Below, in pieces: positions 1 through 4,771 of a DNA stretch of 4,771 nt. A program made the translations under genes and the position numbers. Source of the DNA: a virus (taxonomy: Duplodnaviria; Heunggongvirae; Uroviricota; Caudoviricetes). Positions within the stretch are counted from its first letter, which is position 1. The number at the start of each line of letters is the position of its first letter. The stretch covers positions 1-4,771 of IMG/VR virus record IMGVR_UViG_2703718827_000009; one strand, written 5' to 3'. Below the pieces are notes generated by a model. It was not told the DNA's origin and did no database searches. It was given only the letters and a program-made list of their open reading frames with translations.

Positions 1-318
1 TCACACCATCCTGTCGTCTTCGATCGCACTGTTGATGAAGTACGTCACCCTTCCCAACACCTCGACCTCTTCCGCTGCCTCACCTTCTATCGCTTCGCCA
101 TCATCCGTGATTAATGCCCTTCCCCTGAGTTTCGCAAATTGTGTTCGACCGCCGGACAAGATCAATAGCACCTGCCCCTGCACTAACCGGGTAACCGGTT
201 CGATAACCGCAAACCCGGAAGACGTTTCCAGGATGCGGGTATCAATGCCCACACCACAGATGAGTTCCGGTGTCATCCGCTGAGACACGTAATCAGCAGC
301 CGGTGAAGGAAAGCCCAT
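1..318 (-). CDS. UmuD'-like (HumD-like) S24/LexA-family beta-barrel protein; N-terminus in window at 318, 3' end beyond the window edge
   Basis: The product begins M-GFPSPAADYVSQR, matching from memory the segment of E. coli UmuD that follows its RecA-mediated cleavage site (GFPSPAADYVEQR). Later segments (GQVLLILSGGRTQFAKLRGR; EVEVLGRVTYFI) align loosely with the UmuD C-terminal strands. An in-frame stop lies 17 codons upstream (372..370), so no N-terminal arm is encoded. Start ATG 318..316 has a strong SD GGGAGGG 7 nt upstream and overlaps the stop of the upstream ORF (TGATG). Confidence 0.6.
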   Translation of the reverse strand: MGFPSPAADYVSQRMTPELICGVGIDTRILETSSGFAVIEPVTRLVQGQVLLILSGGRTQFAKLRGRALITDDGEAIEGEAAEEVEVLGRVTYFINSAIEDDRMV

Positions 319-557
319 CAGTGAACCCTCCCCATGTTGCGCAGGATCCAGTAGTGATTGTCGGTTCCGTCAGTTGTCTTGTCGGTAAAATCTGGCTGGT
401 AGTACTTTATCCACTCGTTGGCGTCGGCCCGGGTGAAATGCCAGTGGACCTTTGCCAGCTCGCGGATAAAGTCTTCTGTGCGTAAGCACCGGTAGCCCTT
501 GGAGTTTAGCTGTATTGCGGCCACAAATGCGCTGTGAATGTCTGATTGGCGGGGCAT
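318..557 (-). CDS. Small hypothetical protein (79 aa from ATG at 557; the reading frame stays open up to 644), first gene of a putative SOS-regulated pair
   Basis: Open frame 644..318 in the ORF track. The internal ATG at 557 is preferred because the LexA box (572..591) would otherwise lie inside the coding sequence; an AAGAG purine tract sits about 8 nt upstream of it. Its stop is translationally coupled to the downstream UmuD'-like gene. I recognise no family for the product (MPRQSDIHSAFVAAIQLNSKGYRCLRTEDFIRELAKVHWHF...). Confidence 0.45.
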   Translation of the reverse strand: MPRQSDIHSAFVAAIQLNSKGYRCLRTEDFIRELAKVHWHFTRADANEWIKYYQPDFTDKTTDGTDNHYWILRNMGRVH

Positions 558-571
558 GATCTGCACTCTTT

Positions 572-591
572 TACTGTTTTTATATACAGTA
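572..591. promoter_or_regulatory. LexA (SOS) box, TACTGTTTTTATATACAGTA
   Basis: Palindromic CTGT-N8-ACAG with an AT-rich spacer, matching the gammaproteobacterial consensus TACTG(TA)5CAGTA at about 17-18 of 20 positions. It lies 15 nt upstream of the minus-strand ATG at 557 and about 7 nt upstream of a strong plus-strand SD (598..604), in a divergent intergenic region. Confidence 0.7.
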
Positions 592-615
592 GTTTTAAAG
601 GAGGTGCAGATCAAG

Positions 616-696
616 ATGGCTAGGCCTATCAATGGAGCAACCATGAGATTTAGCAGTTTGCGACCGCCGCTCCTCCCTCAAGCGAAACCACCGTGA
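616..696 (+). CDS. Candidate 26-aa small ORF (MARPINGATMRFSSLRPPLLPQAKPP) behind a near-perfect Shine-Dalgarno sequence; speculative
   Basis: AAGGAGGTG at 598..606 is a near-perfect anti-SD complement, followed after an 11-nt spacer by ATG 616 and an open frame to TGA 694..696. It sits directly downstream of the LexA box and upstream of, on the same strand as, the glycosyltransferase gene. The peptide is basic and Pro-rich with no recognisable family; it may equally be a chance ORF. Confidence 0.2.
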   Translation: MARPINGATMRFSSLRPPLLPQAKPP

Positions 697-702
697 TATA
701 TT
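694..702 (+). promoter_or_regulatory. Possible extended -10 element (TGaTATATT) for the glycosyltransferase gene
   Basis: TG at 694..695, one spacer base, then hexamer TATATT at 697..702 (5 of 6 matches to TATAAT). No good -35 is visible. It lies about 30 nt upstream of ATG 732, which has SD AAGGA at 720..724. Confidence 0.3.
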
Positions 703-731
703 TACGCCACACACACTATAAGGATCTTAAG

Positions 732-1913
732 ATGAAAGTTGCTGTTTTGATGATGCAAAAGGATGAGTACCGGCTTCTTGAGCCATGGATACTGCATCAT
801 GCTGAGCTTTTTGGCCTTGAAAATTTATACGTCTACGATAACGGGTCAGCAGATGAGCGATGCCTTAACATTCTTAAGGAATATTCGGGAAAAGGGATGA
901 ATGTCGTTTATGACAGAAGCACCTTTGATGATTTCAATACCAGACATATCTACTTCGTAGACAAATACGAAGAATTAAAGAATTATCATGGCTATGATTT
1001 TATGATGCCACTTGATTGTGATGAGTTTGTCGGCGTTGAATTTTCAAAGGGTAAGGTGTCGCTGTCTAAAAATGACGTGTTGAATGAATTATCAAAATAT
1101 ATAGAAACCGACGCCACATTTAAAATTAAATATACATATGGCAACCACCCGCTTAACCCCAAAGAATTTGCGTTAAGCCCTAAACCTGAGAAAGTGTTCT
1201 TCCCTAAATCAAGAATCACTGCGCTGGGTAATGGCTTCCATCGCGGTGAGGTTGAGTCAGGCCATCAAGTTGATACCGATATCATTTACCTTCATTTCCA
1301 TCATAAAAAATATGATGACTATATCGCCAGCGCCCGTAATAAACTGGAAGGTCTTGTTGACGTCAATGATATTGAGGCTCTGAAGGCATTCAAAGGGGCG
1401 GGACATCATTTAGTCAAAAAGTTCCTGATGACTCAGACTGAATATTACGATATGCATGCAGCTTCGAAATCTATCAACCCGTCTAAGTTCTTTATTATGG
1501 ATGGAGTTTATGAATACCTGAAGGGTATGGGGCTGAATCTGGAGCAAGCATTAACGGTTGAGCACGATGAAAGTAGAATAACGTGGCATGGTTACGTAGA
1601 CAGGGTAAGAGAAGAGGAAGCGTCATGCGTTTTCACAGGGTGGTGCGTGCCCACTGAGGGCGTTGAGCAGCAGTTCTTTAACTTACGCATAGGACAGGAG
1701 ATCCTGCCCGGTTTTCTGGAGGAAAAAATTCAGCGCTCAGATGTTGTAGCGAAGTTCCCAGATTACAATCTGGACTGCGGATATTTAGTGAGATTCTACG
1801 GATTAACCAAAGGTGCATTGCAGCGTAACGAGTGGGAATTTCATGTTACTGCCGGATGTAAAGGCACTGGTTCAAAACTCAACAGAAGGAAAACAGAGTC
1901 ATACTTCCAATAA
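732..1913 (+). CDS. GT-A fold glycosyltransferase (family-2-like, resembling the Glyco_tranf_2_4 type), 393 aa, with a C-terminal domain of unknown function
   Basis: The N-terminus MKVAVLMMQKDEYRLLEPWILHHAELFGLENLYVYDNGSADE follows the E-W..HH...G....Y.YDNGS.D pattern of GT-A enzymes, and a DxD-type motif PLDCDEF lies about 90 aa in. ATG 732 has a good SD (AAGGA, 7-nt spacer); the GTG at 693 listed in the ORF track has none. Stop TAA 1911..1913 is followed immediately by a strong terminator. No obvious transmembrane segment. The gene is visibly more AT-rich than its flanks. Confidence 0.65.
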   Translation: MKVAVLMMQKDEYRLLEPWILHHAELFGLENLYVYDNGSADERCLNILKEYSGKGMNVVYDRSTFDDFNTRHIYFVDKYEELKNYHGYDFMMPLDCDEFVGVEFSKGKVSLSKNDVLNELSKYIETDATFKIKYTYGNHPLNPKEFALSPKPEKVFFPKSRITALGNGFHRGEVESGHQVDTDIIYLHFHHKKYDDYIASARNKLEGLVDVNDIEALKAFKGAGHHLVKKFLMTQTEYYDMHAASKSINPSKFFIMDGVYEYLKGMGLNLEQALTVEHDESRITWHGYVDRVREEEASCVFTGWCVPTEGVEQQFFNLRIGQEILPGFLEEKIQRSDVVAKFPDYNLDCGYLVRFYGLTKGALQRNEWEFHVTAGCKGTGSKLNRRKTESYFQ

Positions 1914-1916
1914 AAT

Positions 1917-1940
1917 AAGGCGGGAAATCCCGCCTTTTTT
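1917..1940. terminator. Bidirectional rho-independent terminator between convergent transcription units
   Basis: GGCGGG (1919..1924) pairs with CCCGCC (1929..1934) around loop AAAT, followed by TTTTTT (1935..1940) on the plus strand. On the minus strand the same hairpin is followed by a U-rich tract (TTATTTTATT). It sits 3 nt after the glycosyltransferase stop and about 40 nt after the stop of the minus-strand 80-aa ORF. Confidence 0.75.
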
Positions 1941-1975
1941 ACCTTCCCATGCCTTAGAATTGCCATTATTTTCAG

Positions 1976-2218
1976 CTAGCAATCAATTGTCGCATAAGGA
2001 AGTTCTGTCTTCGCATGTTTATAGCACTGCTCGAAGATATTAGGACCAGCGAGGTCATAATCGCATTCCATTGTTTGACGGTCTATCTGTGCTTTTTCGC
2101 CGGTTATTGGATGGTCAATATACTGAATGAGATCGTATTGTGCACGGTACTTTCCGTGCACTCTTGGCAGTTCAACGCGAATATAAACAGATCCTTCATT
2201 ATCATTCGTCAGTGCCAT
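1976..2218 (-). CDS. Hypothetical small acidic protein, 80 aa; last gene of the tailspike operon
   Basis: ATG 2218..2216 is preceded by SD GAGGT with a 5-nt spacer; stop TAG at 1978..1976. The start overlaps the preceding small ORF by 17 nt. The product (MALTNDNEGSVYIRVELPRVHGKYRAQYDLIQYIDHPITGEKAQIDRQTMECDYDLAGPNIFEQCYKHAKTELPYATIDC) has balanced composition with no signal peptide or transmembrane segment, and I recognise no family. The antisense plus-strand ORF (2015..2245) has a low-complexity hydrophobic product and looks spurious. Confidence 0.5.
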   Translation of the reverse strand: MALTNDNEGSVYIRVELPRVHGKYRAQYDLIQYIDHPITGEKAQIDRQTMECDYDLAGPNIFEQCYKHAKTELPYATIDC

Positions 2219-2363
2219 TCTTTACCTCGTGAAGAGATTCGATAGGGCTATCTAATTCTGCCTGCAATGCATTCATTGAAGCATTAAAAGCAGGAACTTC
2301 ATGACCGCTAAGATTTACGCGAAGCATAAACTGCATGATATTCTGAATAGTTTGCTTATCCAT
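2202..2363 (-). CDS. Hypothetical small acidic protein, 53 aa, immediately downstream of the tailspike gene
   Basis: This ORF is not in the supplied track (too short); I translated it by hand as MDKQTIQNIMQFMLRVNLSGHEVPAFNASMNALQAELDSPIESLHEVKNGTDE. ATG 2363..2361 is preceded by SD CAGGAC with a 6-7-nt spacer, only 12 nt after the tailspike stop. Stop TGA at 2204..2202 lies inside the start of the next ORF (17-nt overlap), suggesting translational coupling. Confidence 0.45.
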   Translation of the reverse strand: MDKQTIQNIMQFMLRVNLSGHEVPAFNASMNALQAELDSPIESLHEVKNGTDE

Positions 2364-2375
2364 TTTATTGTCCTG

Positions 2376-3878
2376 TTAAGTTAAACCAATTAATCCATGC
2401 CCGGTTGAAGCATGTAAGTCCTGAATTAATGCTGCAACTACCTTTGCTAAATCTTCGTGAGTTATTGTACCAGAATTAAACGCAGCTCTGGAAGTTGTAC
2501 CAGTTGGAGAACCCCATCCAGTTTTCCTCCCAGAAAGAATTTGATTGCCATTAACTCTAACATTCAGGTTGTTAAAGTTAGCCCAGTTCTCCGTCCTGTT
2601 AAGGCTCAAGTATGTCGTATTTGCAGGGCCTGTTCCTACGACAATTCTTTGATTGTCACCCAGCAAAATTGCGCAGTTATTACTGAACCCAGATTCAGTT
2701 AGAGAAATACCCACTCGGAAATTTCCATTTCTGAATCGTATACCATTTGCAGCGTTTGATAAAATAGATCCTTCAAGGCGCACATACTCGCCATTACCAA
2801 CTACAGTAGGTGCCTCTGTTGGCGGTACAATTGAATCGCCCCTGAATAGCAAACCAGTCCATATATACCCGTTAGGCGCAGCCGAGCCTCTTCCGACGTT
2901 AATCATGTGGGTTACACGGTTACTGCCATCGGTAGTGGTACAGACCAGACCTCGCGTATTTCCTTCCAGCTCAGCGCCTACCATCCAACCCTTATCTATG
3001 CTGCATCCATTATTGAGGTTGAATTCATGAACAATTACTGATTTGGCCCCTGTATTTGCTCCTCCAGTGCCTGCATCTCCTGATACTGCGCCGTACGACC
3101 ACCCGCCCCAAGCTTCGGCATTAGCATGGCGAGCCTCCCCCCTGAAATGAGCACCAACTAATTGCCCCGTCCCTCCTTCATGCCTTGCAGCAAAGGTTGC
3201 GGCAGCGCCATAAGCTGAACCACCTTGCTTTTCAAGATAACCGTAAAAGCACCCCTGTTCCCAACGCGAGACACCATCATCACGAGTTGCATTGGACTTT
3301 TTTTCTATCCATTGAACTGGATCTGGCGTGTCTGTAAGGGGTACTGAATATCGTTGCCGCATGGCATTCGAATATTGGATTGTGTTGTTATTGTAGATGT
3401 TTACACCAGCAACATCAGACCCCGTCCAGCCGCCTCCACCATAAAGATCGTCAAGCCCTTTCCCGTCTTTACCTGCAAATAAAGACCTCAAAGAGGCATC
3501 CCCAACACTTACCCATGCTCCGAGCCCAATTCCACCAGTGGAAATAGGAGTAGAGCCAGCTGGAACTACTTTACCGCCAGGAGGAAGCGCACCATCCCAT
3601 CGATAATATTCACCAGTGCTTGTATCTCGTAAAACCTGATTATATAACTCAATAGTTGCGCCAGATTGAAAAGAATCTAATGTTATATATCCAAATGAGG
3701 AAATAGCAGAAGCAGCCATTTCCTCAATTCCATACCACGTCTTACGCTTCCTTCCAAAGCGGTCCTGCCAGAAGGTAGAGTTTAAGTCATTTATTGCAGA
3801 GTCAAAGTTTTGTGAGTTGTCATATAGATCGCGCGGGTCTACTGAGCCCGGCGGATTATTAGTGGCGTATTTGGTCAT
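2376..3878 (-). CDS. Phage tailspike / receptor-binding protein with a predicted parallel beta-helix (polysaccharide depolymerase-like) body, about 500 aa
   Basis: Long minus-strand ORF (track 2376..3893). The central and C-terminal parts are Gly/Asn/Thr/Ser-rich with short repeats of alternating hydrophobic residues and Asn/Gly turns (e.g. NGIRFRNGNFRVGISLTESGFSNNCAILLGDNQRIVVGTG; NLNVRVNGNQILSG), typical of tailspike beta-helices. It sits directly downstream of a large tail structural gene. Start ATG 3878 is preferred (SD GGAG, 5-nt spacer) over ATG 3893, which directly abuts a T-run with no SD. The specific family was not identified from memory. Confidence 0.6.
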   Translation of the reverse strand: MTKYATNNPPGSVDPRDLYDNSQNFDSAINDLNSTFWQDRFGRKRKTWYGIEEMAASAISSFGYITLDSFQSGATIELYNQVLRDTSTGEYYRWDGALPPGGKVVPAGSTPISTGGIGLGAWVSVGDASLRSLFAGKDGKGLDDLYGGGGWTGSDVAGVNIYNNNTIQYSNAMRQRYSVPLTDTPDPVQWIEKKSNATRDDGVSRWEQGCFYGYLEKQGGSAYGAAATFAARHEGGTGQLVGAHFRGEARHANAEAWGGWSYGAVSGDAGTGGANTGAKSVIVHEFNLNNGCSIDKGWMVGAELEGNTRGLVCTTTDGSNRVTHMINVGRGSAAPNGYIWTGLLFRGDSIVPPTEAPTVVGNGEYVRLEGSILSNAANGIRFRNGNFRVGISLTESGFSNNCAILLGDNQRIVVGTGPANTTYLSLNRTENWANFNNLNVRVNGNQILSGRKTGWGSPTGTTSRAAFNSGTITHEDLAKVVAALIQDLHASTGHGLIGLT

Positions 3879-3893
3879 GCTCGCTCCGGGCAT

Positions 3894-3914
3894 AAAAAAC
3901 CCGCCGTAGCGGGT
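3894..3914 (-). terminator. Hairpin plus T-run (intrinsic terminator or attenuator-like) between the upstream tail gene and the tailspike gene
   Basis: On the minus strand, ACCCGC-TACG-GCGGGT (6-bp GC-rich stem, 4-nt loop; 3914..3899) is followed by five or six T. It lies 20 nt after the stop of the upstream gene (3937..3935) and directly before the tailspike start region. Probably partial or read through by antiterminated late transcription. Confidence 0.45.
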
Positions 3915-3934
3915 CAGATAGTTTTGATTTGCTG

Positions 3935-4771
3935 TTAAGCGGCGTCACCGGGGTATGTGGCGTCGTCATAGGCATACTTTCCTGGGTGGTACTGGATGGC
4001 TGTTACCTGACTGATCCCGTCATTGCCTGGGGATATTTCCCCCACCAGTGCGTCATACGGCACACGGACAGACGAGCAGAACAGCAGGCGCGGCGGCTCA
4101 ATGTACGCATCGTTCATTGCCCATAATTCCGGCTCCAGCGCGGCGCTGTACGGCACCGAGATCGTGAAGTCGTCAATGCGAGTCGGCACCACCATGGCTG
4201 ATGCCCTGCCGTCCTGATGGCGGATAATTACGCGCGGGTTTTCAAACGACCAGTCCGGGGACTCACTGAGCGTCATAGTGATTTTGCTGCTGTCATATGT
4301 CATATCGGTAATCAGGCAACTCAGCGTCTGGCTGCCGGGGATGTCATCGGCCAGCACAATGCGATCCATGAACTCATAACAGAGCGCATCCATCTCTGTT
4401 GATGTGGTGTGCTGCAGGCGCTGAAGCTGGTAGCCCAGCAACCGGCGCATGCCGATGCGGTAAGCGCGGTCCTCGTCCAGAACGCCATCCAGCGTGTAGC
4501 TCTCGATTTTCACCGGCGTAGGGTTGCCAGGCAGGCGACACTGCACGGTCTCCTCTGCCCAGGTGGTACCGTTGATATACGTCACGTCCACGCCATCGTA
4601 ATCGTCCTGAGACGGGGCCTTAAACGCGGTCTGCAACTCCTCGGTGGTTTCCTGCGGGGTGATCATGCCTACCCAGGGTTTAATCCCTTCCCGGCCAGCA
4701 GACGCCAGCCCGTCAGACAGCAGGAAATACCCCATCCCCGCGTTGGTGATTTTCTGCAGCACCTCAAGTGC
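3935..4771 (-). CDS. C-terminal ~275 aa of a large phage tail structural protein (possibly central tail fibre or tail-tip, host-specificity type); 5' end beyond the window
   Basis: The minus-strand frame is open from the window edge (reads ...ALEVLQKITNAG...) to stop TAA 3937..3935. GC-rich with enteric-like codon usage (frequent CTG, GCG, CGC). It sits immediately upstream of the tailspike gene. I could not match it confidently to lambda J from memory, so the identity is inferred from position only. Confidence 0.5.
   Translation of the reverse strand, partial: ALEVLQKITNAGMGYFLLSDGLASAGREGIKPWVGMITPQETTEELQTAFKAPSQDDYDGVDVTYINGTTWAEETVQCRLPGNPTPVKIESYTLDGVLDEDRAYRIGMRRLLGYQLQRLQHTTSTEMDALCYEFMDRIVLADDIPGSQTLSCLITDMTYDSSKITMTLSESPDWSFENPRVIIRHQDGRASAMVVPTRIDDFTISVPYSAALEPELWAMNDAYIEPPRLLFCSSVRVPYDALVGEISPGNDGISQVTAIQYHPGKYAYDDATYPGDAA

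Follow-up and report, generated by a model that had tools for sequence, protein, structure and literature searches.

What is a terminator-type hairpin doing inside a phage tail operon, directly ahead of the gene for the receptor-binding protein? The question arises from a 4,771-nt stretch of a caudovirus genome (IMG/VR record IMGVR_UViG_2703718827_000009, positions 1 to 4,771; "the window" below), in which a GC-rich hairpin with a T-run lies between a TipJ-family tail-tip gene and a tailspike or tail-fibre gene. The stretch covers the right end of an enterobacterial prophage that is lambdoid and of siphovirus type, and its genes of interest are on the minus strand; the closest record, 91% identical across the whole window, is a prophage of Escherichia coli strain E3. 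The best explanation of the locus as a whole, of moderate confidence, combines an intra-operon terminator that would be read through by Q-type antitermination with a modular, trimeric receptor-binding protein.

The junction is compact. A 56-nt intercistronic spacer (3879..3934, minus strand, as for all junction and tailspike coordinates below) separates the TAA stop codon of the TipJ gene (3937-3935) from the tailspike start codon. In order of transcription it consists of an A-rich stretch of ~20 nt; the hairpin GACCCGC-TACG-GCGGGTT (3898..3915, with its 5' arm at 3915-3909, loop at 3908-3905, and 3' arm at 3904-3898); a run of six T (3894..3899), the U-tract, directly 3' of the stem; and a leader with the Shine-Dalgarno (SD) sequence GGAG (3884..3887). 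A sequence-only reading of the window had the hairpin and T-run filling the gap; they are present, at 3915-3894, but the A-rich spacer upstream is not part of them. The hairpin was detected by a terminator scan, and has a 7-bp stem with five G-C pairs and a tetraloop. Its predicted fold (-13.1 kcal/mol, z = -4.0) was equalled by none of 200 shuffles, and Rfam has no match at 3915-3898. With every sequence hallmark of a rho-independent terminator in place, the hairpin would be expected to act as one, as the sequence-only reading had proposed.

Two in-frame ATG codons compete for the start of the tailspike gene. The first, ATG1 (3891..3893), is 41 nt from the TipJ stop and immediately follows TTTTTT, without an SD; the second, ATG2 (3878-3876), is 56 nt from the stop, with GGAG 5 nt upstream. 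Both ATGs lie where the sequence-only reading had put them, and the N-terminal peptide it quoted is correct. The long open reading frame (ORF; 2376..3893) encodes 505 aa if counted from ATG1, beginning MPGASMTK..., and 500 aa from ATG2 (2376..3878, stop codon 2376-2378), beginning MTKYATNNPPGSVDPR... On comparative evidence ATG2 is the real start: it is the one chosen by PGAP in the E3 prophage, where the product is named "tail fiber/spike domain-containing protein"; all homologues begin MT.Y.T.NP.GS; many relatives have no ATG1; and in another prophage (locus L006, first junction) the equivalent upstream ATG is out of frame. ATG1 is missing in loci L008, L009, L011 and others, whose leaders read TTCGCCTGGAG, TACGTCTGGAG and so on, and its position reads ATTG in a copy of the junction sequence found in Erwinia phage Midgardsormr38. 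An SD (GGAG, GAGG or GGA) is kept 5-8 nt upstream of the start in relatives. Several database proteins are called from MPGASMT, but conservation rules out ATG1, absent or out of frame as it is in relatives.

Conservation also bears on whether the hairpin is more than an accident of sequence. One genome per bacterial species was scanned with an alignment of the N-terminal 140 residues of the tailspike, giving 80 loci, of which the 66 with a match beginning at residue 1 were used for hairpin counts. A GC hairpin with a T-run was found upstream of the start codon in 51 of these, whereas random windows drawn from these loci gave a rate of 3.7% and shuffled sequences one of 1%. The distance from the end of the hairpin to the start codon is 15-21 nt in 50 of the 51, and 28 nt in the other. 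This arrangement is more than chance, and statistically robust. The hairpin-bearing loci span Enterobacterales, Alcaligenaceae, Halomonas, and Comamonas, and include 31 distinct stems (among them ACCCGC, ACCCGGC, AGCCAGC, GGCCAGC, GGCCCCT, GAGCCCGC, AACCGCC, and GAGCCACCC). Pairing covaries, with 27 and 20 pair-count cells changed on both sides, a result reached by none of 500 shuffles; the loci were chosen with a hairpin detector, which inflates the paired percentage. Loci lacking a hairpin (Stenotrophomonas, Pseudomonas, Alcanivorax, Malikia) have their upstream stop codon just 15-25 nt from the start. At closer range, in five E. coli prophages, the stretch from hairpin to start is invariant save for the loop, while the flanking coding DNA differs by 12-14%. 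Judged by these patterns the hairpin and its one-sided U-run are under selection, and conserved pairing with a U-run on one side only is the signature expected of an intrinsic terminator oriented to stop late transcription.

The hairpin is not specific to tailspike genes, however: it is one copy of an intercistronic unit that is widespread in temperate proteobacterial phages, made up of a GC hairpin, a U-run, an SD, and then a start codon 15-21 nt past the stem. The E3 prophage tail operon alone contains three near-identical ACCCGC-N4-GCGGGT hairpins with T-runs (L001 1073-1092, 3118-3135, and 9851-9868), one ahead of each of three genes: major tail, tape measure, and tailspike. At the tape measure gene the TTTTTTTATGCCCGGAG / ATGCCCGGAG leader recurs, again with two in-frame ATGs; PGAP chose the first of them there, but the second at the tailspike gene. 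In Hafnia phage Pocitis76, which appears temperate because it carries O-antigen conversion genes, such hairpins precede both the tail tube gene and the tailspike gene, and one lies upstream of the tailspike gene of Enterobacter phage CobraSix. In Midgardsormr38 an intergenic stretch before the gene for gpM, the minor tail protein M (L094 3501-3545), is 93% identical to the window's unit (3925-3883, 45-nt). An exact-pattern scan of IMG/VR (ACCCGC-N4-GCGGGTTTTTT-N1-5-CCCGGAG) yielded at least 123 matching units (viral contigs L095-L214) in siphovirus- and Mu-type phages. The ORFs starting 3-10 nt after them encode the tape measure protein, a gp13-type tailspike, gpM, a Dit-like phrog_384 protein, a Mu-type baseplate hub or wedge, a tail assembly chaperone, or a tail fibre. 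The presence of the unit before tape measure, baseplate hub, and chaperone genes weakens the idea that it marks high-copy genes only. It is not universal: the virulent Sf11-like phages Bas80, 64795_sal3, and Sa179lw have no hairpin at this position and share a different, 39-nt spacer, and a P22-like prophage with the same tailspike body as the window has none upstream of its tailspike gene.

One prophage, in E. coli CUPF06 (L006), has two tailspike genes (1826-3928 and 5040-6968) with an acyltransferase gene between them. One encodes a GH28-like tailspike and lies behind an ACCCGGC-type hairpin; the other, of unknown type, lies behind the window's ACCCGC-type hairpin and leader. It is possible that this is a dual-specificity siphovirus. 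Homology between the window and the second of its tailspike genes begins exactly at the hairpin, at window position 3916.

How, then, would the tailspike gene be expressed? A consensus scan found no sigma-70-like promoter site between the TipJ and tailspike genes, although weak or activator-dependent promoters escape such scans. With no promoter-like site at the junction, the tailspike gene would be transcribed together with the tail genes, and most likely depends for its expression on terminator read-through in the late operon, in agreement with the sequence-only reading. Lambdoid late operons have a single promoter, and polymerase modified by Q passes through terminators. By this model the hairpin at 3915-3898 and its U-run would form a rho-independent terminator inside the late (tail) operon, at the boundary between TipJ and tailspike. 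During lytic growth, late-operon polymerase modified by a Q-type antiterminator would ignore the hairpin, and the tailspike gene, lacking a promoter of its own, would be transcribed and then translated from ATG2 by way of GGAG. Unmodified polymerase, for example from spurious transcription in the lysogen, would halt at the hairpin. A candidate antiterminator is encoded in the E3 prophage: a 207-aa ORF following rusA (L089 14464-15087, minus strand), called hypothetical by PGAP and without a Pfam match, matches phrog_753, "anti-termination protein Q-like" (E 2e-61), and is probably an unannotated type of late antiterminator. Terminators inside a late operon are documented for phage L, where the suggested roles are to stop transcription that has not been antiterminated or to attenuate it partially, the true role being stated as unknown (PMC8022706).

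The second half of the explanation concerns the protein itself. Its N-terminal domain, left unidentified in the sequence-only reading, can be assigned: residues 4-167 align with residues 4-161 of the tailspike gp13 of Shigella siphophage Sf11 (PDB 9OCC, chain 9occ_G; E 7e-36). Residues 1-60 (3699..3878) are a helical tail-attachment segment homologous to Sf11 gp13 residues 4-59, with helices predicted by AlphaFold2 at residues 15-33 and 48-59, and residues 63-132 (3483..3692) are a Tail_spike_N (TSP1/Gp66 N-terminal) domain, PF18668 (69 bits against a gathering threshold of 25; model positions 2-70 of 70). The latter also match the CBA120 tailspike structures 4oj5, 5w6h, and 6nw9, and are modeled with a per-residue confidence (pLDDT) of 78-91. 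As the sequence-only reading had noted, the N-terminus is of neither the P22 head-binding nor the T7 gp17 type. In Sf11, three gp13 chains contribute residues 4-59 to a helical bundle in which a single adaptor helix from the distal tail protein gp17 also takes part (PMC12724387); by analogy, residues 1-60 and the PF18668 domain would dock the tailspike on the tail tip. The anchor is found in hundreds of proteins at 55-75% identity, joined to bodies from more than ten Pfam families, including pectate-lyase-like, beta-helix, GDSL esterase, P22 tailspike, endosialidase N-terminal, and peptidase S74. The pattern anticipated by the sequence-only reading, a conserved N-terminus with a variable body, is thus borne out by these families and by the identity profiles of relatives.

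The same profiles locate the site of exchange. The sequence-only reading had put a modular junction at the hairpin; the main joint is instead inside the gene, at about residue 135-150, and the hairpin is not special to the boundary between TipJ and tailspike. Identity profiles switch over a neck of residues ~133-150 (3429..3482), the recombination joint of anchor and body, and by these comparisons modules are swapped there. Relatives P0006 and P0008 are 100% identical to the window's protein before the joint and 36-44% after it. P0003 has a P22 head-binding N-terminus, unrelated before the joint, and after it is 52% identical, rising to 68-100%; in P0001 identity is 56-96% across residues 1-200, then 96-100% from residue 201 onward. 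In DNA sequence, window positions 3192-1 are 87% identical to a P22-like prophage at argW of E. coli PK12 (L005), a stretch that covers the body from about residue 230, two small ORFs, a family-2 glycosyltransferase (GT2) gene, and the last two ORFs of the window. The hairpin, leader, and anchor remain with the tail genes, or move jointly as one unit (L006).

The joint would couple the anchor to an exchangeable body, with a C-terminal module closing the chain. Two small overlapping ORFs on the minus strand (2202-2363, 53 aa, and 1976-2218, 80 aa) accompany the body; they occur in the same order, annotated as hypothetical, in the siphovirus-type E3 prophage and in the P22-like PK12 prophage. 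Body, small ORFs, and the opposite-strand GT2 gene (732-1913, plus strand, convergent to the tailspike gene) would then be a cassette that podovirus prophages carry as well, behind a P22-type head-binding domain. This suggests a module for O-antigen-directed adsorption and seroconversion, since the body co-transfers with the GT2 gene, and the latter is probably an O-antigen seroconversion gene moving with its matching tailspike body.

The body, residues ~151-420 (2619..3428), belongs to an uncharacterised family of modest size, with 128 cluster representatives at E<=1e-10 among 1.84 billion proteins, and has no Pfam or NCBIfam match. The sequence-only reading expected a beta-helix. The tailspike does not match the beta-helix families PF09251, PF12708, or PF13229; two distant family members match at most the first 25-44 positions of the PF12708 model, below threshold. 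In a monomer model of what is an obligate trimer (pLDDT 78.9, pTM 0.70) the body has almost no intrachain strands, and a catalytic beta-helix is unproven. Three acidic residues conserved in the body, E285, D317, and E364, could be catalytic. The C-terminal module, residues ~421-500 (2379..2618), is related to the C-terminus of the P22 tail needle gp26: as a family profile, the last ~75 residues match 4lin, 2poh, 3c9i, and 5bu8 in the PDB (E 2.5e-9 to 1e-8), while the single sequence reaches only E 0.15. The same end of ~60 residues (...TGW..PTGT...LA..V.AL..DL...HGLIG) occurs as a module by itself on dozens of proteins that are otherwise unrelated.

Several points weigh against this combined account of an antiterminated hairpin and a docked, modular spike. 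Termination and Q-dependent read-through are both read from sequence, and the Q-like gene is that of the E3 relative, in a region to which the window does not extend. No significant fold match was found for the body, and any enzymatic activity of it is putative. The prophage lineage has no counterpart of the 457-aa Sf11 distal tail protein to which the anchor would dock; the corresponding E3 protein, a 156-aa phrog_384 product encoded after the tape measure gene, has weak similarity to gp17 residues 5-85 (E 0.078). The unit often precedes genes needed in higher copy, such as those for tail tube and tailspike, which goes against substantial attenuation. It also keeps strictly close to the start codon that follows and, in L006, moves along with the 5' part of the gene behind it, neither of which is required of a pure 3'-end terminator. 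These last two features are unexplained by a plain terminator, and roles for the unit as an RNA insulator or stabiliser, or as a recombination linker, therefore stay alive.

Two further-reaching readings are unlikely as they stand. In the first, the unit would be a portable cassette spread by recombination through the tail operons of siphovirus- and Mu-type temperate phages, both expression insulator and the crossover point that lets tail genes be swapped. In the second, the body (residues 150-420) would have an undescribed, probably intertwined-trimer fold that binds or cleaves O-antigen, moving between podovirus and siphovirus prophages with a matching GT2 seroconversion gene.

A role chiefly in insulating or stabilising expression at the RNA level, rather than in termination, is likewise improbable. 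Endonucleolytic cleavage in the A/U-rich spacer would leave the hairpin as a cap, either on the downstream mRNA at its 5' end or on the upstream mRNA at its 3' end, and the closed GC stem with its U-rich single-stranded tract would keep the SD accessible whatever lies upstream, making a portable cassette of the whole. The near-fixed stem-to-start distance, seen in 50 of 51 loci, would fit, as would the co-movement of the unit with the tailspike 5' end and the recurrence of one leader before many different tail genes; yet the minimum length of a U-run, SD, and spacer would also give tight spacing. Placement before high-copy genes (tail tube, tailspike) is offset by placement before low-copy ones (tape measure, baseplate hub, chaperone), and a GC stem, a tetraloop, and 6-8 U are the exact architecture of an intrinsic terminator.

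Canonical terminator features would also fit a leaky terminator that tunes stoichiometry, so that even in lytic growth the tailspike gene and those after it would be transcribed less than the tail genes before it; partial termination is one of the two roles proposed for phage L (PMC8022706). Attenuation by the hairpin is nonetheless unlikely by analogy, because the downstream gene is often needed in more copies than the upstream one: the tail tube gene follows the tail terminator gene, and Sf11 has 18 tailspike chains to 3 of the hub (TipJ) protein (PMC12724387), a ratio that runs counter to attenuation. The hairpin also precedes the gene for the tail tube, the most abundant tail protein, and the E3 relative encodes a Q-like antiterminator; on balance the idea is quite doubtful.

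Least probable is that the 35-45-nt unit matters chiefly as DNA, a shared linker for homologous recombination that swaps tail-gene modules: its invariance in E. coli prophages between diverged flanks, its 93% identity, ahead of a different gene, in an Erwinia phage that is otherwise unrelated, the start of L006 homology exactly at the hairpin, and the 123 or more exact pattern copies at tail-gene boundaries would all fit, but distant relatives change the sequence completely while keeping the pairing and the one-sided T-run, which argues for selection on RNA structure, the best-documented joints are inside coding sequence at residue ~135-150 and not at the unit, and a linker is compatible with a terminator role, of which it may be a by-product.

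The 3' part of the TipJ gene (3935..4771, minus strand), which encodes the tail-tip (host specificity) protein, matches tail protein J of phrog_469/phrog_31 (E 3e-81) and is 96% identical in amino acid sequence to the C-terminus of the 1027-aa TipJ of the E3 prophage; a sequence search of the PDB gave no match. Downstream of the tailspike and its small ORFs, the terminator scan found a bidirectional hairpin (1917..1936, both strands), a perfect 8-bp stem AAGGCGGG-AAAT-CCCGCCTT with T-runs on both strands, which would end both the tailspike transcription unit and the convergent GT2 gene. The single Rfam match in the window, below threshold, is to this hairpin (PrrB/RsmZ 3' end, E 0.47), and simply reflects the terminator. 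The GT2 gene has a low GC content (36-45%), and its protein has no match in the PDB or NCBIfam; GC content is 58% in the TipJ gene and drops to between 36 and 52% in the cassette. A search for flanking repeats or inversion sites around the cassette found only short chance matches.

Two small ORFs, 644-318 and 318-1 (minus strand), close the window. The first matches phrog_3893 (79/108 aa). The last, of 105 aa and UmuD/HumD-like, matches UmuD-like phrog_3469 over its full length, and the HumD NCBIfam model over its first 19 residues alone. The pair (1-644) is a conserved right end of siphovirus- and P22-type prophages at different integration sites. The E3 prophage itself adjoins yciB/ompW and is lambdoid, with genes for integrase, exo/bet/gam, repressor, a DnaB-like helicase, ninB/ninE/rusA, lysis, and head proteins, and tail genes of the type tape measure protein - 156-aa protein - DUF1833 - CHAP-like - TipJ.

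For annotation, the start of the tailspike gene can be fixed at ATG2; gene callers are inconsistent at the hairpin and ribosome-binding site unit. For phage engineering, the locus offers a defined splice point (residue ~135-150) at which new receptor-binding bodies could be joined to a gp13-type anchor, a body family without a structure or Pfam model that is carried on both P22-type and siphovirus-type virions, and a compact terminator-ribosome-binding site unit that is naturally reused before many tail genes. The strong conservation of the hairpin makes the role of terminators inside late operons testable.

Several elements of the locus have parallels in known systems. A terminator is reportedly present ahead of tailspike gene 9 of P22 as well. 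The late operons of phages L and P22 have terminator-type hairpins within a single-promoter, Q-antiterminated operon (PMC8022706), as proposed for the window; compared with those terminators, the window's element is conserved in sequence, is fused to the ribosome-binding site of the next gene, and recurs before many tail genes. The closest likeness of the tailspike is to Sf11 gp13, through the homologous N-terminal ~160 residues (including a DPRDL motif with Arg16), the order of N-terminal helices, PF18668 domain, and exchangeable body, and the position of the gene directly after the tail-tip hub gene. Sf11 is virulent, however, and its relatives have the hairpin-free 39-nt spacer, whereas the window's prophage has the hairpin; the Sf11 docking partner is the 457-aa distal tail protein, which the window's prophage lineage does without; and the Sf11 body is described as P22/Sf6-like (PMC12724387), while that of the window has no detectable beta-helix. 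The PF18668 domain, over the full length of the model, is also common to TSP1-4 of CBA120 and gp66 of G7C. In those myo- and podoviruses it is part of branched multi-spike assemblies, whereas the window's prophage is a single-spike siphovirus, and a helical anchor of 60 residues precedes the domain. Finally, the motif VxGxRxTGWxxxTGT...ALxxDLxxHGLI is shared by the C-terminus of the window's protein and P22 gp26 (2POH, 3C9I, 4LIN), but in P22 the module ends a cell-piercing needle, and here it ends a tailspike or fibre.

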